From Pedobacter sp. (GTDB lineage: Bacteria; Desulfobacterota; Desulfuromonadia; Desulfuromonadales; Syntrophotaleaceae), in contig JBFWJC010000001.1 in NCBI GenBank assembly GCA_050253415.1, positions 680,679 through 744,678 on the forward strand: DNA of 64,000 nucleotides, written 5' to 3'. Both the position numbers and the translations under genes were made by a program. Position 1 is the first letter of the stretch. Each line of letters starts with the position of its first letter. Below, in pieces: positions 12,892 through 62,109 of the stretch. The notes under the pieces are model-generated. The model had not been told where the DNA came from and searched no databases. It saw nothing but the letters and a program-made list of their open reading frames with translations.

Positions 12892-12968
<77 letters not shown>

Positions 12969-46588: not shown

Positions 46589-46635
46589 TTTGTACTTCCT
46601 CCCAATCTTTTACATCTGGAATGGTTCCGGGTAAA

Positions 46636-46730: not shown

Positions 46731-46974
46731 TGGTAGTTTCGCATAAATCGCTGATGAAGATGTCAATGAACTTTTCCAAGTAGACACGTTATAACATAAA
46801 ATAGAACGAAAGTTCAATATCGGATGGTGTATACATTTTGCGGCGGCGGGTATTTTTTGCAAAAAAACTGTAAGACCTTGAAAACACACTGGAAAAAAAA
46901 TTAAAATTGATAGCAAACAGTGTGGTTTTTCGATCTGTTTTGCGTTGAATGGCGCGTTTTTTTCACAGCTGACG

Positions 46975-47997
46975 TCATAAAAGCAAAAAAGGGATATAAA
47001 AAAATAGACTGCCGAGAAGAAAAAATGGCGAGAGGTCAAAAGATGTTCGCTGCGGTGGGAGGTCGATGGGGGACACCGCGACCGTTGTGATTTTCTCCAT
47101 GAGTTTGGTGGCGACTTTTTCTGGTTGGTTATCGCCCAAATAGAAATAGCTTCCGCCGGTCGCAGCAGCTATTTCTTCAAGGGGGCGTTGATCGAGTCGG
47201 GTTTTAAGGGGAATGTCCTGACTGTCCACATAAAAGCCGTCGATGTCGGTGGCGCCTTTTCTGCGGATGGGAATAAAGACATCGCTGGTATGACCGACTC
47301 CGATGGTGAATACCGGAGTAACGGATCCTGTTCTTCTGGCAAGAGTCTGCAGAAGCGATGACCGGGTATTTTCAGTGTCTTCGCCATCCGTTATGAGAAC
47401 CACCGCTCGCGCCGGGATTTCTGCCTGGCTGTCGACCATCATCATACCACTGTCGATGGCAGCCAACAGATTACTGCCTGATTCCGTCAGATCGCCAAGA
47501 TCGGTATGGGTGACCATGTAACGCAAAAAGCCCAGGTCACGAGTGGGAGAAACAACCTCGATGCCGTTACGCGCAAAAAAGAACAGACCGACTTTCTCTC
47601 CATCAAGACGTTCGACTATGCTCAGAGCCAATCGCCGCGAGGCATTAAGCCGGTTGGAAAGAGGCGTTACGCGCTCTCCAGGTAGCCGTTGCAGGACCAC
47701 ATCCTCGGCCAGCATCGATTTGCTCACATCAATGCCGATGGCCAGCACCAGGTTGTCGCTGATATTCCCCGATCGCGATACGGTAATGCTGGGTCCTGCG
47801 AGGGCGGTCACAAGACTGGCCAGTCCCAGTAGTGGCAGCAGGCTGCGGCCTGTACGCCGCCAAACCGGCCTGTTGCCAGAATCCGCCCGGAACCGACTCC
47901 GTAAACGACCAAGAAAACGTTCCGTGGCCAGAACCCGCCAACCGATCGGAAGGAGTAGCAGGAGCAGCCAGAACATCTGCGGAGAATTGAATCGCAT
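46975..47997 (-). CDS. Membrane-anchored VWA protein (MxaL/BatB-like)
   Basis: FNSP..WLLLLL N-terminus, MIDAS DVSKSM, LITDGE, IA..TGG.Y, C-terminal TM. Confidence 0.82.
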   Translation of the reverse strand: MRFNSPQMFWLLLLLLPIGWRVLATERFLGRLRSRFRADSGNRPVWRRTGRSLLPLLGLASLVTALAGPSITVSRSGNISDNLVLAIGIDVSKSMLAEDVVLQRLPGERVTPLSNRLNASRRLALSIVERLDGEKVGLFFFARNGIEVVSPTRDLGFLRYMVTHTDLGDLTESGSNLLAAIDSGMMMVDSQAEIPARAVVLITDGEDTENTRSSLLQTLARRTGSVTPVFTIGVGHTSDVFIPIRRKGATDIDGFYVDSQDIPLKTRLDQRPLEEIAAATGGSYFYLGDNQPEKVATKLMEKITTVAVSPIDLPPQRTSFDLSPFFLLGSLFFYIPFLLL

Positions 47998-48006
47998 GTC
48001 AGGGTC

Positions 48007-48807
48007 CTATTTCTCTACCCGGGTTTCCAAAGGAACTCCGGGGGCGAAGCCAGCCACGTCTGGAATAAAAGCTTCGAGCTGTTCCTGAACCTCGGTCAGA
48101 TTTTCCTGCCGGACTTCGCTCAGTCCGATCTTGCGGTATTCGCCGAGGCCGACGATCAATTCCATGTTCCAGCGGGGCAGGGCACGTTCCTGGGAGGAAC
48201 TGCAGGTTGCGTCGACGAGATCGATGGCGGCTTTATAATCATCAATGGCGTCGGACAGGAACTTTGCACCCTTGCGCCCATCCTGTTCAAAATTCAGCAC
48301 GCTGTAGGCAAGCATGACAGACACATTGCCTTTGAGGGTGAGCAGTTTCCAGTCTAGCGATGCAGTTAGCTTTCCCCTGCTTTCCAAGGCTGCGGCGCAA
48401 CTGTCGCGCAGGGCGAGCAATTGTTGGTGAAAAGTCTGCAGTTGATGGCGTTGATCCGAAGCAAGATATCGGTTATTCAAGGCCGCTGAGATTTGCTTGA
48501 AATTGGTAACGGCTTCTTGCCACTGGTTCCAAAGTCGGACGTAGTTGGCCTCGGGTAGCGGTTGGCCAAGAGTTTTCGCCTGGGCGCTGATCTGCTCCAG
48601 TTCGGAAATGACGGCTTGACGGTCCTCGGCTGGGGGCAGGTTTGCCATTCGTGCATTGAGCTTATGCAGGTTTGTCGTTTGTTGCGAACTGTGCCAGTAG
48701 CCGATGGCACCGGCAATCAGCAGCACTATGCCTGCCAATCCCACAGTGCTCAGGGCGATAACTGTGGCGCGTTTGTTTCGCAGAAGGATGTCTGTGAAAG
48801 TAAGCAT
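48007..48807 (-). CDS. Membrane-anchored helical/TPR-like protein (MxaK-like)
   Basis: Single N-terminal TM, helical body, KGN...Y..A...PRWNMEL; lies between two VWA genes. Confidence 0.6.
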   Translation of the reverse strand: MLTFTDILLRNKRATVIALSTVGLAGIVLLIAGAIGYWHSSQQTTNLHKLNARMANLPPAEDRQAVISELEQISAQAKTLGQPLPEANYVRLWNQWQEAVTNFKQISAALNNRYLASDQRHQLQTFHQQLLALRDSCAAALESRGKLTASLDWKLLTLKGNVSVMLAYSVLNFEQDGRKGAKFLSDAIDDYKAAIDLVDATCSSSQERALPRWNMELIVGLGEYRKIGLSEVRQENLTEVQEQLEAFIPDVAGFAPGVPLETRVEK

Positions 48808-48901
48808 GTTTCAGTCCTCGAAGTTGTTGCAAGGCAATTTGTTATACCTTGACCGGTTATTGCCGTGTCCTTTTGGTTTTAACCGAAGCCAGGTGGCTGT
48901 T

Positions 48902-50014
48902 TTAAAGTTTGCGAAGCCGCGGCAGGCTGCGCAGAAGCAGGTGCAGTGCCATAAGTCCAAATCCCATAAGGGCCAGCGTCTGTCGGGTCCAGCGTGGTTG
49001 CAGGGTGATGCGAGTCAGATTCCGATTGCTTTCCAGGATGTCGATCTCTCGGTAGACTTCTTCAATCTGTTCCCGATCCAGACCGCGCGAGGTAACGAAA
49101 ATGCGACCGACGGCAGGTTCGCCGGTTACCGGCTGCATGGCTTTTTCCACCGCTTCGTCGACCTCGCCACCGACCGAAATGATGTAGAAACGCACTCCGA
49201 CCGCTTTCATCAGGGTAATGATGTTGACCAGGTTCGGCAGGGCACCGCTGCGCACGTGGGCGCGCTGGGTCGGTTCGATGCGGCCGTCGGTAAAAAGGAT
49301 AACAGCCATGCCGGTGCCCAGTGCCGCATTGCGGATCTTCTGGGGGATATCGAGCAGTGCTCCCGGTTCGCCGAGCAGAAACTCGCGCATGCCGGCGATC
49401 TGTTCAACGCTCAGGCGGTTTTCCTCGGGCAACATGGAGAAAAATGCCGAAAGGGATAACCATACAGCTTCGGAGGCGTTGGTGCCGCCCCCGGCTCCAA
49501 GTTCCCGGTAGATTCGCGAGTGGTTTTTGCTGCGCACCAGATCGAGTTTGGCTTTGAGCAGATCTTTGTCAAACGTCAGCGGAGCCAGTAGCTTGGCGTA
49601 GCTGGAAAAGGCCACCAAGCCGATGTAATCGTCGCTGCGGCGCATATCGATAAAGGAGCTGATCCCGTCCAGAGCCAGATCGCCCAGAGTCTGATCCGAG
49701 AACCGGCTTACCGGGCGTTTCATGGAGCCGGACAGGTCAAGGGCCAGAAACAGCCATTTCGATTCGATGAATTCCTCTACCGTCTCTTTCGAATAGCCTG
49801 GATTGACCAGGCTAAGGACCAGACAGGCGTATACCAGGCTGAAAAGGATACCGTTGTAATTACGTTTCCAGAATCCCGGCCGCAGACTGACCATGTCCGG
49901 CAAGATGGACGGGAATGGCAGCTTGCGCCGAGTGCGCCGTCGCAGCACCAGGAAAAGGGGTGCCAGCAACAGCAGCAGCAGGGCCAGAGGGTATTGCAGT
50001 TCGAAACCAGGCAT
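48902..50014 (-). CDS. Membrane-anchored VWA protein (MxaC/BatA-like)
   Basis: YPLALLLLLL N-terminus, MIDAS DLSGSM, GLVAFS, PLTFD, GT, LFTDG, VY.EI..LE. Confidence 0.85.
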   Translation of the reverse strand: MPGFELQYPLALLLLLLAPLFLVLRRRTRRKLPFPSILPDMVSLRPGFWKRNYNGILFSLVYACLVLSLVNPGYSKETVEEFIESKWLFLALDLSGSMKRPVSRFSDQTLGDLALDGISSFIDMRRSDDYIGLVAFSSYAKLLAPLTFDKDLLKAKLDLVRSKNHSRIYRELGAGGGTNASEAVWLSLSAFFSMLPEENRLSVEQIAGMREFLLGEPGALLDIPQKIRNAALGTGMAVILFTDGRIEPTQRAHVRSGALPNLVNIITLMKAVGVRFYIISVGGEVDEAVEKAMQPVTGEPAVGRIFVTSRGLDREQIEEVYREIDILESNRNLTRITLQPRWTRQTLALMGFGLMALHLLLRSLPRLRKL

Positions 50015-50040
50015 GGGCACAATCCGGCAGCAGAGGCGGT

Positions 50041-51843
50041 TCAGTGTTTTTCGGGAACGTCCTGCAGCGTTTCTGAGCAGGCCCGCACTTCGGCAATAAG
50101 CTTCCCGGCTTTCTCGGGTAAATCGGCCGGTATGACTGCCTGGTCGCCACGCGCCAGAGCATGATCGATGATGGACAGCACGTCGGCGGCGGATGGGCGG
50201 CATGCGCGGGGCAGTGCATCTTCGATGCGGTGGAAGAAGGCCGTGTGGCTCCCCCCGCGCATGTCCTCGTCAAGCCCTGCAAATTCGGCCAGGTAGTTTT
50301 TCAAGGCTACACCCAAAACGGCCAGTTCTTTTAATCCCAGGTGTTGCTCTGTGGCCAGAACCACTGCGCTTACTGCCTGATATAGGCGGTTCAGGGCGTG
50401 GTTTTCGGGCTGCACGGCCATTTTCTGGCGGCTACGCCGGAGGATGGCTGCCGATGCGCAGACCAGGCCGATGAGAACCAACCCGGCTAACATCAGCATG
50501 GCATGGTGGCGTTTGGCCCCTGTCGCAGCCGCGTCATCCATGCCCGGCAGGGGGGCTGGTTCGGCGACCTGCAGGTCAAATCCCTGCTGGCTTTCCGGGA
50601 TCATCGCGGCGATGCGTACGGGTACTTCGGTAGTCTTGATCAGCTGCACCTTGGTCCTGGGTGCGCCGCTATCTGTGTAATAAACCGGAATGCCCGGGAG
50701 ATTGTATTCGCCGGTGGCATAGATTTTTATCTGTCCGGTAATGCGAATGGGGCTGCGGTTCAGGTCGACGGCGCTTAACGGGACGTCATAGCTGATGTCG
50801 TACAAATTGTGGAAAATGCCACCCGGTTTGAGATTCAGGTTGGCAATGGTGCTCGATTCAATTTTCACCTTGTCGGTAAAGCGAATTTCAAAGGTAAAGG
50901 GGATGGGGGTGCCGGGCATGGCACCATTCATCGCCAGGGAAAACTGTACGCCGACAGGCGGTATCAGAGGCATCAAGACCGGCCAGGCCTGCGCTACGCT
51001 GATGTCCTCGGCCAGCAGGTTGGCAGTCTGCCAGACGCTTTGCCGGCAAGGATCGATGGTGATACTTTGACGGTTGGAGGGCGTTATTTCATCGGTTTCC
51101 ACGGCCTCGATGGCTTGCAGCAGAGCCTGCCGTTGTTGGGGGGAGGCGGCGGTCTTCCAACGGATCGCAATACGTTCCAGGGGAGCATACAGCTGATCAG
51201 CGATTCTCCAGGCAGGGTGTGCGTACTTGACCTGTGGATCCTGCTGTAAACGCGTCATAAGGGTTTGGAAAACTTCCTTCGGCATATCTCTGCGCAGCCG
51301 GTAGGCGGCCATAGCGGGGCCCAACTCCGGGTCGTGAAGGAAGTGACTGAAGTATTCGCCGTACTGTTGGTTGAACGACTCGAAGGATGGCGGTTGGGCA
51401 TTGCTATCCCCCATCTGGAGATTGTCGGATATCTCTGCCGAGTAGCTGTCGGTTGTGTCCTCCGGCAGAGTATCGATTTGCCTCGTTGCATCCATCAATC
51501 GCACCACCAACCAGTCAAGGGCCGGTTGGGGGACGACCCTCTGCCCGTTTTGGTCGTAGAACCATACATCCTCCTGGTAGCTGGACCACAGGCGGTCAAA
51601 GCAGGCGATACGTTCCGCATCAAGGGAGTCTGACGCGGTTTCCGGCTGAGCCTCGGAATCCGTGACTTGTTCGGCGGATACTTCCGCAGTTGTCCCACTT
51701 TGATCAGGCAAGTTTTCTGCTGCCATGGCCGGGACAGCAAACACCAGGAAGAAAACCAGAACCTGGACCAACAGGCTTACCTGCGCAAGGCAGGCAGGGT
51801 GCTTTGTAACTGTACGGGAAGCATTGCGAGGATGTTGTTTCAT
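50041..51843 (-). CDS. Exported membrane-anchored protein (MxaA/BatD-like C-terminal half)
   Basis: Signal peptide ending PAMA, beta-sandwich segment (GEYNLPGIPVYY), TM at ~aa 480-505, short cytoplasmic tail. Confidence 0.6.
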   Translation of the reverse strand: MKQHPRNASRTVTKHPACLAQVSLLVQVLVFFLVFAVPAMAAENLPDQSGTTAEVSAEQVTDSEAQPETASDSLDAERIACFDRLWSSYQEDVWFYDQNGQRVVPQPALDWLVVRLMDATRQIDTLPEDTTDSYSAEISDNLQMGDSNAQPPSFESFNQQYGEYFSHFLHDPELGPAMAAYRLRRDMPKEVFQTLMTRLQQDPQVKYAHPAWRIADQLYAPLERIAIRWKTAASPQQRQALLQAIEAVETDEITPSNRQSITIDPCRQSVWQTANLLAEDISVAQAWPVLMPLIPPVGVQFSLAMNGAMPGTPIPFTFEIRFTDKVKIESSTIANLNLKPGGIFHNLYDISYDVPLSAVDLNRSPIRITGQIKIYATGEYNLPGIPVYYTDSGAPRTKVQLIKTTEVPVRIAAMIPESQQGFDLQVAEPAPLPGMDDAAATGAKRHHAMLMLAGLVLIGLVCASAAILRRSRQKMAVQPENHALNRLYQAVSAVVLATEQHLGLKELAVLGVALKNYLAEFAGLDEDMRGGSHTAFFHRIEDALPRACRPSAADVLSIIDHALARGDQAVIPADLPEKAGKLIAEVRACSETLQDVPEKH

Positions 51844-51873
51844 CGTTTTTTCCTTGGTGTGAACAGGGTCAAA

Positions 51874-52737
51874 TCAGATTCTGGTCGCCAGGCGCCGGGC
51901 AAAAAGGGTGTTGACGCGGGCCTGGATATCCGTAGCACCGACTGGAAGCACCGCGGAGTCGATGCCGACCCCGGCCAGTGCGCGCACGGTGCGTTCCCTG
52001 TCCCGACGCAGCAGGGCGTTGAACTCCTGAAGGCGGGAAAGATCCAGGTCCATTTGCTGGCCCGATTCCATATCCTGAAGCGTCAACAGGCCGCTGTCGA
52101 TGCCGGTCAGCCGGTATTCCGAGTCTTCAAGCACATGCAGGGCCACCATCTCATGGGCGGGAAAACGGCTGTCCGCCGCATCCATCAGACCTTTGAGATA
52201 GCCAAGGTCGGTGTGAAAATCGGAAATGATAACCCCGAGGCAGGAGGCCAGTCGTTTCATGACGAATTCCAGCGCCGGTGCCAGTCGGGTCTGCCGGTTT
52301 TTGGCTGCCGGGGCCTGCTGCAAGGCGTTGACGATGCGGTGAAACTGCCGTGGCGCGGCACTCGGAGGAATCCAGGTCAGGACCTTGTCGGCGAACAGCA
52401 GCAATCCGCAGGGATTGTTGGCGCGCAGGGCGGCGTGGGCCAGGGAAACGGCCAGGTCCTTAGCCATACCGAATTTGTTGCCGAAGTGCATGGAGCGGCT
52501 CACATCGCATATCAGTAGCAGGTTGTAGGCGCTGTCCTTGAGAAACTCACGCACGTGCAGTTCGCCGCTGCGTGCGCAGGCTTTCCAGTCGATACGGCTC
52601 CAGCTGTCGCCGGGCAGGTATTTACGCAACCCCCAGAACTCGTATCCGGTGCCCCGGTCAAGCCCGGCCCAGTCGCCCGCCATGTCGTTACGTGGGGGGT
52701 GTTTGAGCAGGATATCGAAACGATAGGGAGGTTTCAT
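51874..52737 (-). CDS. DUF58 family protein (MxaS-like)
   Basis: G.EF..LR.Y.PGD....IDWKA.AR, DVSRSM.FG, ISDF. Confidence 0.92.
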   Translation of the reverse strand: MKPPYRFDILLKHPPRNDMAGDWAGLDRGTGYEFWGLRKYLPGDSWSRIDWKACARSGELHVREFLKDSAYNLLLICDVSRSMHFGNKFGMAKDLAVSLAHAALRANNPCGLLLFADKVLTWIPPSAAPRQFHRIVNALQQAPAAKNRQTRLAPALEFVMKRLASCLGVIISDFHTDLGYLKGLMDAADSRFPAHEMVALHVLEDSEYRLTGIDSGLLTLQDMESGQQMDLDLSRLQEFNALLRRDRERTVRALAGVGIDSAVLPVGATDIQARVNTLFARRLATRI

Positions 52738-52764
52738 GGCTCAGAGTTGCTCCGTGAGACTGTC

Positions 52765-53784
52765 TTAAGCATAAGGGTCCACCGAACGTACGATATCCCG
52801 CAACAGGTCGGCGGCATGAATGCCCTCGAGAATCGCCGAGTCGCTGAGGATCAGGCGATGTCCGAGAACCTGGGCGGCACAGGCGTCGACATCTTCAAAG
52901 GCCACATAGTCCCGCCCGCGCAAAAAGGCAAATCCTTTGCAATAGGCGATAATATGCTCGCCGGCACGCGGCGAGACTCCCACCGAGACGTAATCGCGTA
53001 CCGCCGGAGGCGCTACGTTTGACTGGGGGCGGGTGCGCAGGCAGATTTCGAGAATATAAGCCACTACGGCCTCTGAAACGGTGACGTGATGAGCAACATG
53101 CTGCTGCATGGCGACGACTTCGTCCGGTTGCAGCAGGCACGGTACCGCTTTTTGCAACTCTTCGAAGTTGGTGCTCTTTTTCCTGAGCAGTTGTTCCTCA
53201 AACTCCCTGGGAGGGTAGGTCAGGGTCACCTTGGCGATAAACCGGTCGAGTTGCGCCTCCGACAGGGGGTAGGTGCCGAGCTGTTCCACCGGATTCATGG
53301 TGGCCAGCACCATGAACAATTCAGGCAGTTGGTATTGGTCGCGGTCGATGCTGACCCGCTTTTCCTGCATCGCCTCAAGCAGCGCCGATTGCACCTTGGG
53401 CGCCGCGCGGTTGATCTCATCAGCCAGCAGAATGTTGCAGAACACCGGCCCCTGATGAAAGGTGAAGGCGCCGGTAGCCTGGTTGAAAACGGTGGTGCCG
53501 GTGATGTCGCTGGGCAGCTTGTCCGGCGTGAATTGAATGCGCTTGAATTCGCCACCGATGGTGCGGGCGAAGGTGCCCACCGTGAGGCTTTTTGCCAGCC
53601 CCGGCACCCCCTCCAGCAGAATGTGACCCCGGGACAGAAGAGTGCAGATAATGGCTTCGATCATCGCTTCCTGGCCGATGATGATTTTGCCGATTTCCTC
53701 TTCGACCTGCTGAATCTTGGTGCGGAACGTTTCCGCCGAAAAGGTTGCTGCAGTCGGGGAGGTATTGTTGGCGGTAGGATTCAT
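52765..53784 (-). CDS. moxR: MoxR-proper AAA+ ATPase (MxaR-like)
   Basis: HILLEGVPGLAKS, RIQFTPD.LPSD, LLADEINRA, ATMNP.EQ.GTY.L.EAQLDRF. Confidence 0.93.
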   Translation of the reverse strand: MNPTANNTSPTAATFSAETFRTKIQQVEEEIGKIIIGQEAMIEAIICTLLSRGHILLEGVPGLAKSLTVGTFARTIGGEFKRIQFTPDKLPSDITGTTVFNQATGAFTFHQGPVFCNILLADEINRAAPKVQSALLEAMQEKRVSIDRDQYQLPELFMVLATMNPVEQLGTYPLSEAQLDRFIAKVTLTYPPREFEEQLLRKKSTNFEELQKAVPCLLQPDEVVAMQQHVAHHVTVSEAVVAYILEICLRTRPQSNVAPPAVRDYVSVGVSPRAGEHIIAYCKGFAFLRGRDYVAFEDVDACAAQVLGHRLILSDSAILEGIHAADLLRDIVRSVDPYA

Positions 53785-53842
53785 GACAGTGCTGCCTCCA
53801 GCTATAACGGTCGTCGACCGGCTGTTGGTCGGTCGAAAAGAT

Positions 53843-54898
53843 TTAGAAAAATACAAATTTGCGGCGGTCACGGATGATCAGGTAGAGAAAAAACGGCCCG
53901 CCGAGCAGTGCGGTCAATACTCCGATACGCAGCCCGCCGCTGCCCCAGACACGCACCACGCAGTCCGAATAGATTACCAGAGCTCCCCCCAGCACACCGG
54001 CGGCAGGGATAAGCACCCGGTTGTCCGAGCCGACAAAGCTGCGCATGATGTGCGGCGCGACCAGGCCTACGAAGCCGATGGCGCCGGATACTGCAATGGC
54101 GCCGCCGGTCAGCAACGCGGAGATAAACAGCAGCATGTTGCGGGATAGGGTTACATTGACGCCGAGGTTGGCGGCGATTTCCTCGCTGAGCATCATGATG
54201 TTGAGATCGCGGGCGTAAAGCATCGACCACAAGGTCCCGATCAGAGTGATGATAAGCACGATATGCACATGCTGCCAACTGCGGTTGGTCAGATCCCCCA
54301 TCAACCAGCCCACGATCTGGCGTGCCATCTCGAACTGGTCCGTCGACAGCACGATGACCAGCGATGTCAGGGCGCCGAAAATAGCATTGAAGGCGATGCC
54401 GGCCAGCAGCAACGTATAGCGCGAGGTCAGTCCGCCGCTGGTGGCGATGCCCAGCACGATCAGCATCGACAAAAAGGCGAACAGGATGGCAAACGACGGT
54501 ACCGCGTAGATGCTGGTGGCGGCCAGACCGGCGTAGATGGCCGTTACCGCACCCAGCGCCGCGCCGGAACTGGTACCGATGACCCCCGGACTGGCCATGG
54601 GGTTTTTGAAGATGCCCTGCATGATGGTCCCCGCGGCGCCCAGCGCGAATCCGACCAACGCACCGGTCAGGGTGCGTGGAACCCGTCCCAGCCAGACGAT
54701 GGCTTCCAAAGCTGGATCCGTCACCATATCGAGACGCAGAACCTTGGCCGCCAGGATGCGGCCGATATCCTGCAGGCTGACCTCCCAGGGGCCGATGCGG
54801 ACCGACAGAAACATGCCGACAAGTAGCAGTGCCAATGCGGCCGAGCATGCCATCAGGCTGGTGATAAAAAAATGCCGGCGATCAGAACGACGATTCAT
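53843..54898 (-). CDS. BtuC/FecCD-type ABC permease (probably corrinoid)
   Basis: RVPR, QGIFKNPMASP..IG.SSGA, W.MG, G.IGFVGL..PH. Confidence 0.9.
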   Translation of the reverse strand: MNRRSDRRHFFITSLMACSAALALLLVGMFLSVRIGPWEVSLQDIGRILAAKVLRLDMVTDPALEAIVWLGRVPRTLTGALVGFALGAAGTIMQGIFKNPMASPGVIGTSSGAALGAVTAIYAGLAATSIYAVPSFAILFAFLSMLIVLGIATSGGLTSRYTLLLAGIAFNAIFGALTSLVIVLSTDQFEMARQIVGWLMGDLTNRSWQHVHIVLIITLIGTLWSMLYARDLNIMMLSEEIAANLGVNVTLSRNMLLFISALLTGGAIAVSGAIGFVGLVAPHIMRSFVGSDNRVLIPAAGVLGGALVIYSDCVVRVWGSGGLRIGVLTALLGGPFFLYLIIRDRRKFVFF

Positions 54899-55955
54899 AA
54901 ATTAATCCCGCCAGGTAGTTGATGCTGGCGACCAAATATTGTGAAGAACTAAGTAAGTAAACCGTTGGCATCTTGCGGATGTTCTTCTGCCGTACCGCGC
55001 GTGCCGTGGCCAGGATCTTCTGGCTGTAAAGTTGCAGGTCAAAGGTGCTTTCTTCCGGCACGATAATCACATCCGGATTCCATTGCAGCAGGGTTTCGTA
55101 GTCAATCTGCTTGAAGTTGTGAATCCCCTTAACTGCGGCGATGTTGGTCACTCCCAAAGCCTGGCACATGCTGTTAAATGTGGTGCCCGAACCAGCCACG
55201 TAGGCCATATTATCGTAATACAGCACGGTCGGCGGTTTGCTCACGGGCCCTCTTCGCTGCCGCACCACTGCTTGGATATCGCGCAGCTTTTCGGTCATGA
55301 CGGAAACCAGGCGCTGCGCCGAGGCTTCTTCGCCGGTCAGGCGTCCGGCCAGCACAATCTGATCCTTGATGGCATCAAGATCGTCGAAAAACCCGAACTG
55401 CGCCAAAGGCACATGCGCGGTGCGCAGCTGGTGCAGAAAGTTTTCGTTGGAAAAGAACGACGCCAACACCAGATCCGGACGGTAGCCGATGACGATTTCC
55501 GCATCGTCGGTGCCGTAGGTCGGCAGGTCGGCCGGCAGCAGCGGTGCCAAAAACGAGAACTGTCGATCCTTGCAGCTTTTGTGCACAGCGACCAGGCGCT
55601 CATGCGGTACAATGGCCCACAAAATTTCCGTCAGACCTGTTGCGTGGGGAATAATGCGCTGCGGCTGCCGCGCAAGGGTAATCGATCGTTCCTCATCATG
55701 TTTCTGGTCTGAAACGAAATCATAGCGTACAAAGCGATAGGATACGGTGCGGGGATAGCTCTCCGCCGTAACAGGTGTCGGTTGCCGGGTGTCGCTCAGT
55801 GATCCCATCAGCGCATCCATCTCCAGAGGAAACTTGCGGGCACCGCGGGCGTTTTCCGCCGCGGTACAAGCGCCTCCCAGCAGCATCGTCAGCAACGCAG
55901 CTCCCAAAATCCCTGTCAAGGCATGCTTAACGATAGAACAACAGCGAAACGCCAT
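54882..55955 (-). CDS. BtuF/FecB-type periplasmic substrate-binding protein
   Basis: PQRII, TEILWA, E......PDLV, E.LLQWNPDVII, AVRQK; start uncertain. Confidence 0.85.
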   Translation of the reverse strand: MAFRCCSIVKHALTGILGAALLTMLLGGACTAAENARGARKFPLEMDALMGSLSDTRQPTPVTAESYPRTVSYRFVRYDFVSDQKHDEERSITLARQPQRIIPHATGLTEILWAIVPHERLVAVHKSCKDRQFSFLAPLLPADLPTYGTDDAEIVIGYRPDLVLASFFSNENFLHQLRTAHVPLAQFGFFDDLDAIKDQIVLAGRLTGEEASAQRLVSVMTEKLRDIQAVVRQRRGPVSKPPTVLYYDNMAYVAGSGTTFNSMCQALGVTNIAAVKGIHNFKQIDYETLLQWNPDVIIVPEESTFDLQLYSQKILATARAVRQKNIRKMPTVYLLSSSQYLVASINYLAGLIYESSF

Positions 55956-56703
55956 GTTCGGTTGCGATTTCCTCCACGCCGACATGGAAAACCTCCTTGA
56001 TGCGTTGTTCGGCAAATCCTTGTTCGGCCTTGCCGTGGTAATAGACGCTGCCCTGTTGCAGCAGGGTTACGGTGTCGCAGTAACGTCGCGCCAGGTCGAG
56101 ATCGTGGATACTGATGAGAATGGTTTTACCCGCATCGCGCAGGCTGGTCAGCAATTCCATGATTTCGAGCTTGTGCAGAATATCCAGGGCGCTGGTCGGC
56201 TCGTCGAGCAGAATGATCGGTGCTTCGGTGGCCAGCGCGCGCGCTAGACTGACCAACTGCGCCTCGCCGCCCGACAGTTCGTTGATAAGCCGGTTGCGGA
56301 AGATGTCGGTGCCGGTGACCACCAGGGCCTGGTCGATGATATCCATATCTTTCTGGCGCAGCCACTGCAGCCGTTTCAGGTGCGGATGGCGGCCCATGGC
56401 GACAAAGTCGGATACCATAATGGAAAAATCGAGGCGCGTGTCCTGCTGTACCAGGGTCACCATCTGGCTGAGAGATTTGCGGGGGATGCGGCGATAATCC
56501 CGCCCCTCGATCAAAACCCGGCCGTTTTGCGGTTCCCAGATGCGGCAGATGTTGCGCAGCAGCGTGCTCTTGCCGGAACCGTTGGGCCCGATCAGTCCAT
56601 GGATGCCCCCGGCGGCAAAGTGGCAGCTGATGTCTTTAAGAATAGCATGGCCACCGATGGAAAAATCGAGCTTGTCAATCTGCAGGATCGGTTGATCGGT
56701 CAT
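55927..56703 (-). CDS. BtuD/FecE-type ABC ATP-binding protein
   Basis: GPNGSGKST, V.MGR.PH, LSGGE, LLDEPTSALD, HDL.LA. Confidence 0.92.
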   Translation of the reverse strand: MTDQPILQIDKLDFSIGGHAILKDISCHFAAGGIHGLIGPNGSGKSTLLRNICRIWEPQNGRVLIEGRDYRRIPRKSLSQMVTLVQQDTRLDFSIMVSDFVAMGRHPHLKRLQWLRQKDMDIIDQALVVTGTDIFRNRLINELSGGEAQLVSLARALATEAPIILLDEPTSALDILHKLEIMELLTSLRDAGKTILISIHDLDLARRYCDTVTLLQQGSVYYHGKAEQGFAEQRIKEVFHVGVEEIATEHGVSLLFYR

Positions 56704-57521
56704 TCTTCCTCGTGTTCCCGGCTTTTAAGAGTCAGTTTCCAGGCCAGCGGCAAGCTGAATTTGGATACGGCGGTCAGCAGCGTGCCGCACAGCACGATGC
56801 TCCACATGATGCCGTGCCCCAGCCGGTCCTGAAACAGGCCGGTGGTTAAAGTCGTTCCCCATAACAGCGTCAACCCGGCGAATAACTGAATATTCTGGCT
56901 CATGGCATGAATGCCCCAGAAATTTTCGGAAATCCGGCTCAATCGGCCATTGCGCAATTTAATTTCAATGAGTTTAAACCAGATGCGTCCTTCCGCCACC
57001 TGGGCCGAGCCGTCGCAGATGTGATGCAACAGGTACAGGGCAATGAGGACATAACGTCCCGCAGCCATATCGCCGAACAGCCCGGTGAACAAGGGCGGGT
57101 AACACAGCAACAGCAATATCGCTCCCAGCGCCTGCCCACCACCCACCAGGGCCATGGCTCGCACCAGGCCTCGTACCTGGGTGTTGATATCCGGAAAGCT
57201 TTCCAGATAATCGACAAACGAAGAAACCTTGACGTTGCTGATAAACGTGATCCCCGGATAAAAGTATTTTGTCAGCACGCCAAGAATCGCCGCCACCCTG
57301 AATTCGGTCTGGGCCATGGAGAACATGGTGTAGAGCACCGCCCCTTCAAGAATGCTCTTGCCCAAAGTGTACAACAGGTTGCCGATCTCGCCATAGCGAT
57401 AATAAGGACTTAGCCCCATGGCCTGGAACCAGAGGGAAGTTTTATGCGCGACATCGCGCCACAGGGAGCGGGGTGCTGGGCGTGGATTGGCGATGGCAGT
57501 TTTCACGGCGGTCTCAGGCAT
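56700..57521 (-). CDS. Uncharacterised multi-pass inner membrane protein
   Basis: About 6 hydrophobic segments; ATGA overlap with the ABC ATPase gene. Confidence 0.7.
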   Translation of the reverse strand: MPETAVKTAIANPRPAPRSLWRDVAHKTSLWFQAMGLSPYYRYGEIGNLLYTLGKSILEGAVLYTMFSMAQTEFRVAAILGVLTKYFYPGITFISNVKVSSFVDYLESFPDINTQVRGLVRAMALVGGGQALGAILLLLCYPPLFTGLFGDMAAGRYVLIALYLLHHICDGSAQVAEGRIWFKLIEIKLRNGRLSRISENFWGIHAMSQNIQLFAGLTLLWGTTLTTGLFQDRLGHGIMWSIVLCGTLLTAVSKFSLPLAWKLTLKSREHEEE

Positions 57522-57691
57522 AGGCGTATCCCGGTTGCGTTAGAAAGCCGGGCCGCTTGAAGGCGGCCCGACCTGGAATTTTGCAGAGTCCAGCGCTTCG
57601 ACCGAATGCGGGGGGTCGAAAAGCTAATGGTGAGGTGGGGGGAAGAGATGGCCCGGGGCGAACCCCGGGCCGATTACAAAGGGTAGAGAGC

Positions 57692-59959
57692 TTACATTTC
57701 CTTCAGCAGTTTAACCGTCTGGCGGGCTGCTTCAGCAGGAACCAGACCGGTATCGGAAATACCGGACAAAACCTTGGAAGAGTCGTGGTCGACAGTACCT
57801 GCTTTAGCCCAGGTGCTGGGAGCGACTTTGACCAGATAAGCGGAGAAGGCATGATGGCCGCTACCCGGGCGTTCGCCGATGAGATGAACAATGGCCTTAG
57901 GAGTGGTGCCAGCTTTGGTAAACAAAACTTCACCAGCTTTGTAGCCAGCGCGAACGCGGCCGCCGGTCACGACGATGTTTTTATCGGACAGGGTCAATCC
58001 GGCTTTTTTGCACTGTTTTTTCAGTTCGTTCAGGTAAGGCATCAGGTGCCCATCATCCATGATCGCCTTGGCGTTCAGACCGTCGGAGATGACAACCTGT
58101 ACGTCAGGGGCTTTGTTGCCCCAAGAGGCAGACAGTTTGCCCAGGGTGGCAACAGCCGCGTCGGACAACTCTTCACCGGTGCCCGGTGCGGAGATGTAGT
58201 TTTCGCGATCGTGAGCCTGAGATTTAATGCTCACGGCATTGGGGATGGAACCGATGAATTCAGGAGTGAACTCGGCCCACAGGCTGATTTTGGCGTCGTC
58301 ATACAGGTCGTGGATACGCTTGTTGGTGACAGGTTCCAGATCCCATACGTTTTCGCCATAGCCTACGGCCAGGTCGACACCGCGGCTGCGTACGTTTTTA
58401 ATGGATTGCTGGCCTTCAGCATAGATTTCCTTGAAGGAGCGGGTGTCACCTTTGGCCTGACGGAATTTGTAGTAAACCCAGGCAGGATCGCCAAAGTGCT
58501 TGGTCGGTTTGCCGTTGGCGTCGATGACTTCGATTTTTTTGTAGAAGTCCCACATGGCGTCGTTGACTTTAAAGCCGAATTTTTCGCGCAGGCGCACGTG
58601 GTCCTGGAAACCGGTGGTCAGGTAGCTGAGCATCGGGTCGTTACGGGTCGGCAGAGCCATCAGGTAGGCCGGGTTGGCCGGGGCGATCTGATCCTGGCAC
58701 CAGGCCAGGTCGTCGAGGGTTACAGGCATATGCAGGGTCGAGCAGATGTCGAGACCCAGCACCAGGCCGTGCAGTTTACCCATGACGATGTCTTCCAGAC
58801 AGGCGCGTACCAGCTGTTCGCGGGTTTTGAAGACCTCGGGACCGATGAAGCCGGCCACGTCGTTGACGTGCAGCCATACCTGATCCTCGGTGACGCCCTT
58901 GGCTTTGGCGATTTCCTGTTTCAGGGCGCGAGAGAACCCGTATTTACGGGACTCGTGGACGACCATGTCGAAGCCGTGGCCGTGACCGTTGGTGTAGTCG
59001 GCACCCTGGCCGGTTTCGAAATAGAGGCCGTAGGGACCCTTACGCATTTTTGCGTAGTCGATCATTTTCTGGATGGTCAGGTCGAAGGTCTTGTTGGCGC
59101 TTTCGGTACCGGCGAGGCTCTGGAACCAGATAGCGGTGGAGCCGGGCTTGGCTTCTTCCGCGGCAGCCTGACCGTCGATGTGGGACAAAACACACCAGGG
59201 GATGGTTTTTTCCAGGCCGAAAGCATCGACGATTTCTTTAAGACCTTCTTCGACGCGCAGGGTTGCTTCGAGTTGGCTGTCGACCGGGTTGGTACCGATG
59301 ACGATGTCACCGACGCCATAGGCGAAGCCATTAAGCGTCTGCATCTGAATGTCTTCTTTGTTGTCGGTCGGCGAGTTGGGCTGAATGCGGGCGCCGATGT
59401 AACCCTTAGCGCCGATTTTGGTGCCGGGCAGGGTGTTGAAAATCTTCTGGCCAATGCGGGTCAGTTCGGCGTTGGACATCAGTTTGACCACGGAACCGAT
59501 CACATCGCTGTGCAGACCGCCCATAATGGCTTTGATGTCTGCTTCGGGCTTGGTGAGCAGAAAGTTTTTCAGCTCGCCCATGGTCATGTTTTTGATTTTG
59601 TTGTATTTAGCCTTGTCGGTGGTTTGGCGGATCAGGGTGTCCTGGCCATCCACGAACAGCGAATGATCGTTGAGGTCCTTGATCTTGGTGTTGGCCAGCA
59701 ATTTGCGGGCGTTTTCGCGGTCCGCTTCGGTGTCTGCCGCTACCCCGAGGGCCTCGTCGCCTTCTTTAAAGGCATTGGCGGCGCCGATTACCTGCTGATA
59801 GGTGGTTTGGTCAAACTTCCCTTTGGTGCGATTGATGTACTGCATGACGTCTTCACCGGGCTTGACGCTGCCGATGGTGACGGCTCCGGCCATGCTGGCC
59901 AGAAAGGTCATTACCAGTGCGCCGGTAATGCCTGCCACGAATTTCCCCTTTTGTAACAT
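57692..59959 (-). CDS. eutBC: Ethanolamine ammonia-lyase, fused large+small subunit (EutB-EutC), with N-terminal Sec-type signal peptide
   Basis: EutB motifs RIQPN, IGTNP, FQSLAG, YFETGQG, GFIGPE, LED..MGKL, MLSY.TT; EutC motifs DVQVVISDGL, RV, LIGERPG; GGAGG RBS; N-terminus MLQKGKFVAGITGALVMTFLASMAGA. Confidence 0.92.
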   Translation of the reverse strand: MLQKGKFVAGITGALVMTFLASMAGAVTIGSVKPGEDVMQYINRTKGKFDQTTYQQVIGAANAFKEGDEALGVAADTEADRENARKLLANTKIKDLNDHSLFVDGQDTLIRQTTDKAKYNKIKNMTMGELKNFLLTKPEADIKAIMGGLHSDVIGSVVKLMSNAELTRIGQKIFNTLPGTKIGAKGYIGARIQPNSPTDNKEDIQMQTLNGFAYGVGDIVIGTNPVDSQLEATLRVEEGLKEIVDAFGLEKTIPWCVLSHIDGQAAAEEAKPGSTAIWFQSLAGTESANKTFDLTIQKMIDYAKMRKGPYGLYFETGQGADYTNGHGHGFDMVVHESRKYGFSRALKQEIAKAKGVTEDQVWLHVNDVAGFIGPEVFKTREQLVRACLEDIVMGKLHGLVLGLDICSTLHMPVTLDDLAWCQDQIAPANPAYLMALPTRNDPMLSYLTTGFQDHVRLREKFGFKVNDAMWDFYKKIEVIDANGKPTKHFGDPAWVYYKFRQAKGDTRSFKEIYAEGQQSIKNVRSRGVDLAVGYGENVWDLEPVTNKRIHDLYDDAKISLWAEFTPEFIGSIPNAVSIKSQAHDRENYISAPGTGEELSDAAVATLGKLSASWGNKAPDVQVVISDGLNAKAIMDDGHLMPYLNELKKQCKKAGLTLSDKNIVVTGGRVRAGYKAGEVLFTKAGTTPKAIVHLIGERPGSGHHAFSAYLVKVAPSTWAKAGTVDHDSSKVLSGISDTGLVPAEAARQTVKLLKEM

Positions 59960-60082
59960 TCTGTTACCTCCGTCTCGTTTGATGGGGGTGCTATCCGGTC
60001 TGCGACAAACGTCGCAGGCGGAGCATGATGAGGTTAAAGTGTGGGAGATGTCTTTGATGATCAGCAACACCTCCCACAGCGC

Positions 60083-61201
60083 TTACTTACGCAGCTGCTT
60101 TGCTGCTTCCCACATTTCGTTGAAGGCCTGCTCGGTCTCGTCGCTGAGAACTCGCCACAGGGCTACGGTTTTGAAGTAGGCTTCGTCGCCTACGTGGAAC
60201 ATAGCTTTTTCCTCGGCATTGAGGATGTCGCCGGTGTCGGCCATGACAGGTGAAACACCCTGAGATTTGACAACGTCAGCCTGGCGTGCGGGATCGAGGG
60301 AGAAGTTGATCCATTCTTCGGCCAGGGTTTTGGTCATGTCCTTGGCGCCGGCGCCCACATACCAAGCGTCGATCCAGGCTGTACCGCCTTCGGCAGGGGT
60401 TGCCAGGCGCCAGTTGCCGCCTTTAAGGTTGGCGGCCTGGGCGGCGAAACCCCAGGTGGTGGCCAGTGCCAGTTCGGGGAATTCATCCGGATTGGCGGCG
60501 CCGTCCCACAGGCTCTTGGCATTTTTGGCCAGATCGTTGAGTTTTTCCTGAACCTTGGCGCGGTCGAGCTTGTTGATGTCGAAGATATCTTCATAGCCGT
60601 AACCGAGCGCCAGAGCCGAGATCCAGACATTAACCTTGGGGAAGTTATTGTTGATGGTGTACTGACCGGCATACTGGGGTTCCCACAGTACGTTCCAGCT
60701 GGTCGGGGCTTGGGCTACCTTGTCGCGGTTATATGCCAGACCGTAGGGGCCGCAGTTGTAAGGCACTCCGTAGCGCACGCCGTTATAGAAAGGCGTCTGG
60801 TCGTTGCGGAATACTTCCATCATTTTGGCCAGGTTGGGGATGTTGTTCACATCCACGGGCTGCACGTATTGCTGGCCTTCCTGGTAGGAGAAGAAACGCG
60901 GGATCTTGGGCAGTTCGATCGGCGGAGAGATCAAATCCGCGGTGTTGTCTTTGACGGCCTGGAAGAATTCGTCCTGGTCGGTCGGGTTGAAAATCTCGAC
61001 ATTGACATCGACGTTGTATTTGTCTTTGACCAGTTTCTGGAAATCCTCTACGTAGGGTTTGGCATAGCCGCCCCAGCAGGTAATGCGCAATGTTTCTTTT
61101 TGGGTCTCTGCCTTTTTGGTGCAGGCGGGGGTCAACAACAGGGCGCCTGCGGCCACTACGGCTGCGGTTGCGGAAACGGCTCCCCACAAAGTTTTCTTCA
61201 T
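60083..61201 (-). CDS. PotD/PotF-like (polyamine/amine) solute-binding lipoprotein
   Basis: Lipobox LTPAC, W.GY, YGVPY..G..GLAYN, PTSW..LW, P.EG...WID, A..WINF; GGAGG RBS. Confidence 0.85.
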   Translation of the reverse strand: MKKTLWGAVSATAAVVAAGALLLTPACTKKAETQKETLRITCWGGYAKPYVEDFQKLVKDKYNVDVNVEIFNPTDQDEFFQAVKDNTADLISPPIELPKIPRFFSYQEGQQYVQPVDVNNIPNLAKMMEVFRNDQTPFYNGVRYGVPYNCGPYGLAYNRDKVAQAPTSWNVLWEPQYAGQYTINNNFPKVNVWISALALGYGYEDIFDINKLDRAKVQEKLNDLAKNAKSLWDGAANPDEFPELALATTWGFAAQAANLKGGNWRLATPAEGGTAWIDAWYVGAGAKDMTKTLAEEWINFSLDPARQADVVKSQGVSPVMADTGDILNAEEKAMFHVGDEAYFKTVALWRVLSDETEQAFNEMWEAAKQLRK

Positions 61202-61371
61202 GATGTTCCTCCTGGCATGCGTCGTTTTCAGGAAAAGGGTGGTCCGGTTTGTACGCCAAAAATTCCGAGTTGCCTTTGTGGGCGAGCTGCGGAAATGGGG
61301 GCGAGGGCAATTCGTTCGCCTCTCGCCCCGTTGGTTGATCGGGGCGGTTGACGCCCATACTTCTTCTGAAC

Positions 61372-62109
61372 TTAGAAAGTAAAGGTCAGGTTAAGGGCCG
61401 CGGCCGATTCGGTGTCGATGAGCTCCTTGGCAGCGCTGCTGATCGGCGACGAGAAGATGACGATCGGGCTGAGGGTCAGCTGGTCGGTCAGGGCGTAATC
61501 AAGGCTGGCGCTCAGTTCGTAGTTATGCCATCCGGAGTAGTCGGCTACGGTGCCATCGGCATGCTGGTTGTAAGAAACCAGGGCGCCGAGATTCAAAGTA
61601 GTGTTGGGGACCCACTGGGTAAGGTCGAAGCTGTGGCTGACGTCAAAGCTGAAGAACAGGCCGTCTTCTTCGGCGCGGTCCCAGTCGTAAGAGATTTTCA
61701 GGTTCGGCGAAAGAAGGGTGTTGAGGGTGACGGTCGCGAACAGTTCGTTGGTGTCTTCCCCTTCGATCATGTACCAGATATCTCCGATCGATACGGAAAT
61801 AAGATCATTCACATCAAAGGCATAGGTCAGGATGACGTCGGTTTCGTTGAGCTCGCCAGCTTTCCAGTTGTCGCCACTGGTCAGCTGCCAGTTGTGCCAG
61901 GTGCTGAGGGTGAAACCGCCGCCGAGGGTCAGGTCCATGCCTGCCTGGATGGTCGGGCGGGAGTCACTCAGGTTAAATCCACGCCACATGTACTTGTCCC
62001 AGATGCCGGCGTAGGCATCGCCTTCAACTTCAATGGACGCCTGGGCCTGGCCGATAAAGCCGGCAGTCATCATAAAGACGGCGAGTAACAACACACTCCA
62101 CTTTTTCAT
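61372..62109 (-). CDS. Outer-membrane beta-barrel protein (TorF/TIGR02001-like putative porin)
   Basis: Signal peptide ending AQA, KYMWRG..L...P.IQ, E.D....Y, amphipathic strands, C-terminal LNLTFTF. Confidence 0.8.
   Translation of the reverse strand: MKKWSVLLLAVFMMTAGFIGQAQASIEVEGDAYAGIWDKYMWRGFNLSDSRPTIQAGMDLTLGGGFTLSTWHNWQLTSGDNWKAGELNETDVILTYAFDVNDLISVSIGDIWYMIEGEDTNELFATVTLNTLLSPNLKISYDWDRAEEDGLFFSFDVSHSFDLTQWVPNTTLNLGALVSYNQHADGTVADYSGWHNYELSASLDYALTDQLTLSPIVIFSSPISSAAKELIDTESAAALNLTFTF

Follow-up and report, generated by a model that had tools for sequence, protein, structure and literature searches.

A single-chain ethanolamine ammonia-lyase with a Sec-type signal and its linked MoxR/VWA gene set: a candidate case of B12 enzyme maturation outside the cytoplasm

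The gene run and its fused lyase

We analysed a 64,000-nucleotide stretch of DNA (the window) from a Syntrophotaleaceae genome deposited as Pedobacter sp. (GCA_050253415.1, contig JBFWJC010000001.1), corresponding to C1:680679-744678 of a 4.10-Mb assembly of 18 contigs that is 100% complete. It holds a run of 13 open reading frames (ORFs), all on the minus strand from 62109 down to 46975, around a gene for an ethanolamine ammonia-lyase (EAL) whose EutB and EutC parts are fused into one chain (EutBC). The N-terminus of this enzyme resembles a Sec-type export signal, and the genes behind it might form a helper set for an enzyme working outside the cytoplasm. The original prediction, made from the sequence alone, had described this co-oriented run; the genes were recovered at or near the same positions with the same Pfam content, and its count of 12 proteins falls one short of its own list of 13 genes.

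In the direction of transcription, the first gene encodes a TorF/Gcw_chp porin-like protein of 245 residues (61372..62109) with a hydrophobic N-terminal signal; the Pfam score passes its cut-off (PF09694, 38.4 bits against 24) and the NCBIfam TorF score lies under its own (42.7 against 47.15). It is followed by SBP6, a PotD/PotF-like solute-binding lipoprotein of 372 residues (60083..61201; SBP_bac_6, 165 bits), which begins with a hydrophobic segment and a Cys and finds its best PDB matches in spermidine/putrescine binders (E 2.6e-13). A PotD-type binding protein normally requires a PotBC-type permease and ATPase, and no permease matching SBP6 was found among the 13 genes. Next comes eutBC (57692..59959) and, after 170 nt, ten further genes from TM273 through the second of two VWA genes, whose ORFs overlap or are separated by at most 94 nt. 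Past the last VWA gene, 386 nt separate the run from its neighbour.

The eutBC gene encodes a precursor of 755 residues, with the EutB and EutC domains within one reading frame. It starts at the ATG at 59959, which has a GGAGG 7 nt upstream and corresponds to the Met shared by the homologues; the GTG at 60070, to which the ORF extends, was rejected on the grounds of this Shine-Dalgarno sequence and the homologue starts. The EutB domain scores above both cut-offs (Pfam PF06751, 487.7 bits against 25; NCBIfam NF011649, 645.9 bits against 554) and matches the Listeria and E. coli enzymes in the PDB (2qez, E 1.4e-66; 3abo, E 1.7e-60). The EutC domain matches Pfam over profile positions 36-224 of 235 (PF05985, 115.8 bits against 25.8), and the NCBIfam equivalog reaches 92.2 bits, under its cut-off of 230. 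By these scores, the EutC part is a divergent, N-terminally shortened EutC module. Because the match begins at profile position 36, the first 35 positions are absent; this N-terminal region carries the microcompartment tag in canonical EutC. The residues aligned to E. coli R160, Q162, N193, E287, D362, and M392, which we take to be the substrate-site residues of EutB, are all identical (phmmer against 3abo_A) and are invariant across 19 fused homologues (alignment A1). Judged by this alignment, the catalytic site of the window enzyme is intact.

Canonical EAL is cytoplasmic, and its cofactor, adenosylcobalamin (AdoCbl), is made in the cytoplasm. The window enzyme has both domains and the aligned substrate-site residues in common with canonical EutB and EutC (E. 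coli 3ABO and Listeria 2QEZ), but it is one chain, carries an export signal, and lacks the N-terminus of EutC. Its genome also lacks EutA, the bacterial microcompartment (BMC) shell, and EutH. The original prediction had noted the absence of these genes from the window, and the genome-wide searches bear it out: no BMC domain and no EutH were found, and the sole EutA match is a 45-residue stretch inside FtsA. These searches covered BMC, EutH, and EutA; eutE, eutD, and eat were not searched.

The first gene behind eutBC encodes TM273 (56700..57521), an all-helical, hydrophobic membrane protein of 273 residues that has no Pfam or NCBIfam family. At E up to 0.001, at least 338 clusters belong to its own small family, out of 8000 candidates that were scored from a pool of 5.8 billion proteins; none of the 120 matches listed, Pcar_0490 among them, has a Pfam domain, and their names, where given, are all 'hypothetical' or 'uncharacterized'. 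The invariant polar residues are YRYGE, HH, Q174, E177, R179, K183, E186, R190, and N200-W202. In the AlphaFold2 (AF2) model (predicted local distance difference test, pLDDT, 83.8), all 50 top VIA matches are major facilitator superfamily (MFS) transporters aligned to one six-helix half. The best of them, 9jbs_A, reaches Z 17.1 with a root-mean-square deviation of 3.2 over 205 aligned residues; chance alone can give helical bundles a Z of about 13-14. With Foldseek, nothing in the PDB matched at E of 0.001 or below (best E 0.16), and the ESM Atlas gave no usable hit. Modelled as a homodimer, TM273 scores 0.71 against 0.00 for the best control, with at least 21% of contacts shared between runs and a partner pLDDT of at least 81; of 30 proteins solved as one-chain pairs, 20 attain this score, as does one of 23 solved as single chains. 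The invariant residues are located in the predicted dimer interface. TM273 is thus probably a homodimer with a fold like one six-helix half of an MFS transporter, and the model fits a dimeric transporter-like protein, with no substrate indicated.

The following three genes encode a FecCD-type, type II importer-like ATP-binding cassette (ABC) system: an ATPase (55927..56703; ABC_tran, 109 bits) whose ORF overlaps that of TM273 by 4 nt, a Peripla_BP_2 binding protein (54882..55955 from an internal Met start, with the ORF extending to 56015; 86.4 bits), and a FecCD-family permease (53843..54898; FecCD, 296 bits). The original prediction called this a corrinoid transporter, a specificity that the sequence comparisons do not support. 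The best NCBIfam models are the corrinoid ABC ATPase (230.7 bits, under the cut-off of 537) and BtuC (262 bits, under 461). The PDB matches of the binding protein are iron-complex, haem, and siderophore binders, and no BtuF was found among them at E up to 0.01. Since the Btu scores lie under the cut-offs and no BtuF match was found, the corrinoid label is a guess. An RNA family scan of the window also found no cobalamin riboswitch ahead of the ABC genes.

The remaining six genes form a module around a MoxR AAA+ ATPase (52765..53871; AAA_3, 201 bits, with AAA_lid_2), whose ORF overlaps that of the permease as called. No other AAA_3 gene in the window genome exceeds the cut-off. MoxR has neither a signal nor a transmembrane (TM) segment and is therefore taken as cytoplasmic, and the DUF58 protein that follows (51874..52737; DUF58, 127.9 bits; VWA_2, 42.7 bits) has no hydrophobic segment. 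Next is p600 (50041..51843), a bitopic protein of 600 residues with TM segments at residues 24-42, which could be a signal or an anchor, and 450-468. Its AF2 model (pLDDT 74.5) consists of alpha/beta and Ig-like parts predicted to be exported, one TM segment, and a predicted cytoplasmic helical bundle. Neither Pfam nor NCBIfam has a family for p600, and a wide VIA search gave generic matches only (Z up to 9.3, to a helical bundle at 477-600 and an Ig-like sandwich at 294-414), from which no function follows. Two membrane VWA proteins enclose hel266. The first is BatA-like (48902..50014 from an internal Met start, with the ORF extending to 50203; VWA_2; NCBIfam BatA, 47.6 bits, under 380), and the second is BatB-like with TM segments near both ends (46975..47997; VWA_2, 34.5 bits; NCBIfam BatB, 46.7 bits, under 350). 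Each has a TM segment, an R-rich loop, a second TM segment, the VWA domain, and a last TM segment, a pattern which by the positive-inside rule would place the VWA domains outside. The protein between them, hel266 (48007..48807), has 266 residues with one TM segment (residues 17-35) and a helical domain with a weak 4HB_MCP_1 match (22 bits, below the cut-off).

The order of the module, AAA_3, DUF58, no family, VWA_2, no family, VWA_2, is that of R, S, A, C, K, and L in the mxa cluster, so that DUF58 takes the position of MxaS, p600 that of MxaA, the BatA-like protein that of MxaC, hel266 that of MxaK, and the BatB-like protein that of MxaL. In the methanol dehydrogenase (MDH) system, incorporation of Ca2+ into the Sec-exported periplasmic enzyme depends on each one of MxaR, S, A, C, K, and L, and MxaJ, a protein with a solute-binding fold, chaperones the insertion of pyrroloquinoline quinone (PQQ) (PMC12276312). 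The comparison with mxaRSACKL drawn in the original prediction is apt in gene order and domain content, as far as the mxaFJGIRSACKLD cluster is set out in that source: both have a Sec-exported cofactor enzyme, a protein with a solute-binding fold, and the order MoxR, DUF58, unknown, VWA, unknown, VWA (PMC12276312). The client in the window would differ, being a B12 radical enzyme rather than a PQQ/Ca2+ quinoprotein, and the ABC system and TM273 are additional. The module also resembles Bat operons in its MoxR AAA_3 and DUF58 proteins, in two membrane VWA proteins that match the Leptospira BatA and BatB models, and in the interleaved BatD-like bitopic (p600) and BatC-like helical (hel266) proteins. 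Unlike an ordinary Bat operon, it scores far below the curated cut-offs and is tied to a neighbouring enzyme with an export signal, to whose genomes it is restricted.

The gene list itself has been published. Aklujkar et al. (2012) listed Pcar_0457-0469 of Pelobacter carbinolicus DSM 2380, the counterpart of the 13 genes (PMC3543383). From Pcar_0469 to Pcar_0454, the order is the same as in the window: a conserved hypothetical protein, a solute-binding protein (SBP), eutBC, a conserved hypothetical protein, three metal ABC genes, an AAA_3 ATPase, DUF58, a conserved hypothetical protein, a VWFA protein, a conserved hypothetical protein, a second VWFA protein, aorA-2, moaD, and a BtuB-like receptor (PMC3543383). 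The fused eutBC that the original prediction mentions for a Pelobacter genome is indeed present in P. carbinolicus, where the fusion was called unusual and duplicated, with cob genes between the copies and eutA missing, and strains of this species grow on ethanolamine (PMC3543383). The window genome belongs to a relative and not to that strain, the closer of the P. carbinolicus EutBC copies listed being 71% identical. It likewise has a second cassette across cob genes and no eutA, as P. carbinolicus does (PMC3543383): about 30 kb away, C1:768057-773579 encodes a porin-like protein, an SBP, an EutBC of 753 residues with the same signal type, and a TM273 paralogue, followed by cob genes, and no ABC or MoxR set of its own was found in this cassette. 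The prediction that no description existed therefore holds in part. The genes and the missing eutA were listed in 2012, and in that paper EutBC was taken as intracellular, the three mentions of a signal peptide all refer to other proteins, and no role was given to MoxR or VWA (PMC3543383). Our literature searches found no report of an exported or periplasmic EAL, the 2012 genome paper being the only relevant one. What is new here is the link of the Sec-type signal to the mxa-like MoxR/VWA set, TM273, and the ABC system.

Export signals of the enzyme family

Residues 1-26 of EutBC (coding part 59882..59959) comprise MLQKGK, a hydrophobic core of 19 residues, and A-G-A, followed by VTIG; the chain opens with MLQKGKFVAG and has no twin arginine. 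We compared the 120 best homologues, all of about 750 residues with both domains, by a strict rule of our own for Sec signals (K or R first, followed by a hydrophobic 12-mer, a small-x-small site, and [VIA]x[IV]). This pattern is present in 102 of the 120, with Ala at position -1 in all 102. A further 13 have Val at -3, which the usual signal-peptidase rule also permits, and the remaining five are N-terminally truncated or borderline. An RRxFL-like motif occurs in one of the 120. Among these homologues, the sequence of the hydrophobic core is variable and the cleavage region is fixed, which argues for a cleaved Sec signal and not for a functional anchor.

The enzyme family extends far beyond these close homologues. 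We examined 80 genomic loci and confirmed 490 relatives; across the loci, the fused EutBC family reaches Bacteroidota, Planctomycetota, Myxococcus, Balneolota, Chloroflexota, and others. Signals for the twin-arginine (Tat) route take the place of Sec signals on the orthologues from Bacteroidota, Planctomycetota, Myxococcus, and some Thermodesulfobacteriota. Distant orthologues in other phyla, at 53-62% identity, begin with xRRDFL or SRKEFL, often followed by LLNGC; by their motifs, these are twin-arginine-type signals with a lipobox. Many Bacteroidota orthologues (L039, L040, L049, L053, L057, L064, and others) have S-R-K-x-F-L, not R-R, and then the lipobox Cys, which suggests Tat-like lipoprotein precursors with an RK variant of the motif. 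The occurrence of two different export signals on one mature enzyme would be hard to explain except by export.

Thus, the EutBC of the window very probably leaves the cytoplasm, as the original prediction had proposed; the conserved -3 and -1 residues of its own signal and the Tat signals on its orthologues both point this way. The alternative, in which the N-terminal stretch is a membrane anchor or has no use, catalysis takes place on the cytoplasmic side, and the SBP lipoprotein together with TM273 takes up ethanolamine, seems improbable to us. It would agree with the cytoplasmic location of canonical EAL and of AdoCbl synthesis and with the transporter-like fold of TM273, and uptake of ethanolamine or choline has indeed been proposed for the P. 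carbinolicus proteins Pcar_0468/0492 (SBP) and Pcar_0466/0490 (multi-TM) (PMC3543383). However, the hydrophobic core has positive charges ahead of it and a small-x-Ala site behind it, the core drifts freely next to a fixed cleavage region, the Tat signals and lipoboxes of the orthologues make sense for export only, and the PotD-type binding protein has no PotBC-type permease or ATPase among the 13 genes.

The type of signal has a further consequence. The Sec route exports unfolded chains, and the Tat route exports folded, cofactor-loaded ones; reductive dehalogenases are Tat-exported corrinoid enzymes that act outside the cytoplasm. With a Sec-type signal and no twin arginine, the window EutBC would not be able to bring its cofactor across the membrane. 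In a FastTree phylogeny of 90 mature EutBC sequences with a midpoint root, the Sec forms make up one clade (support 100), with the Sec and Tat classes assigned by eye because an automatic pattern misassigned several rows. Two Tat forms (G392 and G356) are nested inside this clade, and two changes of signal type are therefore needed; both genomes lack TM273 and p600.

Distribution of the accessory genes

Related loci were searched by tblastn with the window proteins. The order EutBC, TM273, three ABC genes, MoxR, DUF58, p600, and, where the contig reaches that far, VWA, hel266, and VWA was found at 11 distinct loci besides the window (L004, L006, L009, L010, L013, L023, L063, L087, L090, L091, and L097). 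At the most distant of them, identity to the window is 48-53% for MoxR, 36-40% for DUF58, and 24-30% for p600. TM273 lies immediately 3' of a Sec-type EutBC at 14 loci of the first tblastn locus set and at further loci of the second. The position of hel266 is kept in L006, L009, L013, L014, L023, L063, L087, L090, L091, and L097. SBP6 remains in the cluster at related loci, either ahead of EutBC or behind the second VWA gene, and the porin gene is upstream of EutBC in L004, L006, L007, and L010 and more distant in other loci. In a Desulfococcus locus (L014), VWA, hel266, and VWA lie directly upstream of EutBC and MoxR lies 5 kb downstream, so that the order is rearranged and the linkage kept; the VWA genes stand there beside EutBC without TM273 or ABC genes, and an HlyIII-family gene and a sensor kinase gene separate EutBC from MoxR. 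Co-conservation of the MoxR/DUF58/VWA genes, the ABC system, and the membrane protein with the EutBC bearing an export signal, which the original prediction had expected, thus extends across families and down to 36-53% identity.

Within the family of the window organism (f1), fused EutBC occurs in 13 of 16 relatives, and in 11 of 14 genomes, that of the window included, a MoxR gene is found at a distance of 4-6 kb. Two members of another genus in this family (G414 and G416) have two EutBC copies each, both with a MoxR gene of their own 4-6 kb away (G414:C1:1374544-1381277 and 2523333-2529942; G416 contigs C231 and C393), and the whole module seems to have been duplicated together with EutBC. 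Second EutBC copies also occur without the large module, with TM273 only (L012) or as pairs with a gene for aldehyde:ferredoxin oxidoreductase (AOR) (L095, L096, L085, and L088). In 12 loci, 10 Tat-type from other phyla and two Sec-type, 115 neighbouring ORFs were scanned; no family recurred among them, and eut, MoxR, ABC, and TM273 genes were absent.

We then turned from loci to whole genomes, using a sample of 401 drawn evenly from the phylum and counting p600 as strong at E below 1e-30. TM273 occurs in 16 of them, fused EutBC in 20, canonical EutB alone in 12, and strong p600 in 12. Fourteen of the 16 TM273 genomes have fused EutBC, the other two being fragmented assemblies whose genus-mates have both genes, and all 12 strong p600 genomes are also TM273-positive. 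Six genomes have fused EutBC without TM273: five carry the Tat-type enzyme (G082, G240, G296, G356, and G392), and the sixth (G390) has a Sec-type enzyme on an 8-kb contig. Neither TM273 nor strong p600 was found in any of the 12 canonical-EutB genomes, and neither TM273 nor p600 in any of 10 Tat-type genomes (five from the phylum sample, five from other phyla). Among 19 genomes counted as Sec-type, including one whose EutBC N-terminus was not read (G315), 14 have TM273 and 12 have p600. Thus, p600 and TM273, not MoxR as such, track the Sec-type EutBC. With respect to the co-occurrence check set out in the original prediction, linkage of the module was found, and to the Sec-type enzyme only; some Sec-type genomes lack it. 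The Tat-type fusions belong to the same enzyme family, and the accessory genes are kept only by the Sec form.

Several loci contain features of separate interest. At G289:C1:170777-179379 there is a decayed-looking cluster in which TM273 is split by a stop, EutBC is reduced to a fragment of 280 residues, and p600 is broken in two; a different contig of this genome carries an EutBC that looks intact. A gene for an HlyIII-family membrane protein stands beside EutBC both in L014 (5834-6547, minus strand; Sec-type) and in a Myxococcus locus with a Tat-type enzyme (L067:2758-3525, plus strand). XdhC/CoxI-type and VWA_CoxE genes (L077:15727-17860, minus strand) are found within a few kb of a Tat-type EutBC in Maribacter, as is an XdhC gene in Myxococcus (L067:12684-13595, plus strand); these may belong to unrelated molybdoenzyme clusters. 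In L024 (12713-16527, plus strand), a Sec-type EutBC without TM273 or the module is followed by two ORFs of 538 and 739 residues that have no Pfam family and are possible alternative partners.

Possible roles of the accessory genes and surroundings of the cluster

From these patterns we infer a periplasmic EAL with a module for its extracytoplasmic maturation or cofactor supply. This is in our view the best explanation of the data, at an even balance of probability, and whether the module is dedicated to EutBC we likewise consider an evenly poised question. Both the periplasmic location and the service of the module to EutBC, as well as the step served, be it cofactor supply, insertion, or exchange, are read from sequence. 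EutBC would be exported unfolded via Sec, lose its signal peptide, and act in the periplasm on ethanolamine entering through the TorF-like porin. Because Sec delivers an apo-protein, folding, assembly, and cofactor uptake would have to occur outside the cytoplasm, and the ten genes behind EutBC would be a dedicated helper set for this maturation. The cofactor could pass the membrane by means of TM273, the ABC system, or both and be handed over by a binding protein, and an ATP-dependent step could be performed by MoxR and DUF58 acting through p600 and the VWA proteins, much as mxaRSACKL employs a cytoplasmic AAA+ ATPase together with membrane VWA proteins for completing the cofactor site of periplasmic MDH. 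Acetaldehyde would diffuse inward to the cytoplasmic tungsten-type AOR encoded nearby (44855-46588, minus strand; AFOR_N, 215 bits; AFOR_C, 236 bits), its likely consumer. In the Tat lineages, the holo-enzyme would be assembled inside and then exported, so that no helpers would be needed there.

A number of observations speak against such a helper role. Four Sec-type genomes have neither TM273 nor p600 (G390, G402, G403, and G404, the last a Riflebacteria metagenome-assembled genome, MAG), one has p600 without TM273 (G401), and three have TM273 without p600 (G150, G215, and G326). Several of these are MAGs with a completeness that is unknown or at most 94%, and many of the genomes are MAGs in general, so that some absences may be assembly gaps; they still stand as exceptions. 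As the Sec forms are one clade, the contrast between Sec and Tat rests on about two changes, and kin are not independent; shared ancestry alone could produce much of the co-occurrence pattern. A generic AAA_3 MoxR is present in 39 of 41 relatives regardless of EutBC and is therefore no co-occurrence marker, for which p600 and TM273 were used instead. In comparisons limited to Pfam and NCBIfam models, no homology of p600 or hel266 to MxaA or MxaK could be detected. We know of no way by which AdoCbl would reach the periplasm, we found no link of the ABC system to corrinoids, and the Tat-type enzymes work without such neighbours, so that the chemistry itself does not need them.

Much of this would agree with an explanation that we consider appreciably less probable than a helper role and yet the strongest of its rivals: EutBC does leave the cytoplasm, but the downstream genes encode a corrinoid or metal-chelate importer for the cell, working with BtuB and TonB, and an ordinary Bat-type module, held together by shared descent or by common regulation of a B12-related super-operon. 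The cluster is flanked by cob genes, with cbiJ and a corrin methylase gene upstream of the porin gene, and the ABC system of P. carbinolicus was read as cobalamin or cobalt uptake (PMC3543383). Bat-type MoxR genes are nearly ubiquitous among the relatives, the VWA proteins match BatA/BatB models, and the single Sec clade, the Sec-type genomes without the module, and the Tat-type enzymes without such neighbours are all as this explanation would have it. However, every genome found to have p600 or TM273 orthologues either has the Sec-type enzyme or belongs to a genus with it, none of the Tat-type or canonical-EutB genomes searched has them, the gene order persists at 24-53% identity, and the linkage outlasts the rearrangement in Desulfococcus. 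In two relatives, the set and EutBC appear to have been copied together, the two Tat revertants have lost the set, and the ABC genes are not preceded by a cobalamin riboswitch. Least probable of all is that the MoxR/VWA module serves another client in the run, the AOR or the ABC transporter itself: AOR adjoins EutBC in many related loci, following the second VWA gene in the window and L087 and flanking EutBC in L090, L091, and L094, MoxR systems are known for metal-cofactor enzymes (PMC12276312), and the FecCD and MoxR ORFs overlap as called, but AOR has no signal peptide, whereas the VWA domains face outside by the positive-inside pattern, the AOR-EutBC pairs of second copies have no module, and the Desulfococcus VWA genes stand beside EutBC without TM273 or ABC genes.

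For the maturation of a periplasmic EutBC, a more specific scheme can be drawn up, which we offer as speculation: upkeep of B12 across the envelope for a radical enzyme in a compartment that lacks ATP. AdoCbl made by the flanking cob genes would be exported by TM273; SBP6 or the Peripla_BP_2 protein would give it to apo-EutBC, as MxaJ does with PQQ; MoxR, via DUF58, p600, and the BatA/B-like VWA proteins, would drive its loading or the removal of damaged cofactor; and the FecCD-type ABC system would retrieve spent corrinoid for re-adenosylation, the whole replacing EutA. That all these parts hold together seems rather unlikely, and similarly doubtful on its own is the view, favoured in the original prediction, that the precise role of MoxR is to load or exchange AdoCbl.

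In the textbook view, AdoCbl radical enzymes reside in the cytoplasm or in microcompartments and depend on ATP-driven reactivases. A periplasmic one raises questions of cofactor delivery, repair, and acetaldehyde handling, and the link described here makes an annotation oddity a testable model for the maturation of a B12 radical enzyme outside the cytoplasm. The split between Sec and Tat signals in one enzyme family can be viewed as a natural experiment that points to genes for extracytoplasmic cofactor insertion. We know of no function for the widespread MoxR-DUF58-VWA (Bat-like) modules outside the Mxa case; they would gain a second concrete candidate client, genetically testable in cultivable Syntrophotalea/Pelobacter. 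If true, the joint reading as B12 maintenance would give Bat-type MoxR modules a defined client and a mechanism.

Downstream of the run, the 386-nt gap contains a Moco/tungsten riboswitch directly 5' of the AOR gene (46622-46740, minus strand; RF01055, 61.1 bits). Further on, the sole cobalamin riboswitch in the window (44268-44447, minus strand; RF00174, 102.8 bits) lies 5' of a gene for a BtuB-like TonB-dependent receptor (42194-44128, minus strand; Plug and TonB barrel; TonB-B12 model, 387 bits against a cut-off of 599.7). A promoter and terminator scan of 44000-63000 gave counts close to those expected from shuffled sequence (12 against 8.1; 25 against 20.4) and yielded no operon boundaries; the only strong minus-strand terminator-like hairpin in this region is at 44831-44805, 3' of the AOR gene. 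A SAM riboswitch (14688-14796, minus strand; 84 bits) and a tRNA gene (12895-12968, minus strand) are unrelated to the cluster.

Two marine-sediment metatranscriptome runs of a single study contained 9% of the sequence words. In their contigs, stretches of the EutBC, SBP6, porin, and AOR genes are represented at 90-99+% identity, some pieces being near-identical with 1-4 differing letters per 187-315. The ABC, MoxR, and VWA genes are almost uncovered, which does not imply silence, as the libraries may include DNA. The contigs establish the presence of this or a very close organism in an RNA library, and with lyase, binding protein, porin, and AOR all matched in marine sediment, compartment-free ethanolamine use by sediment anaerobes may be common.

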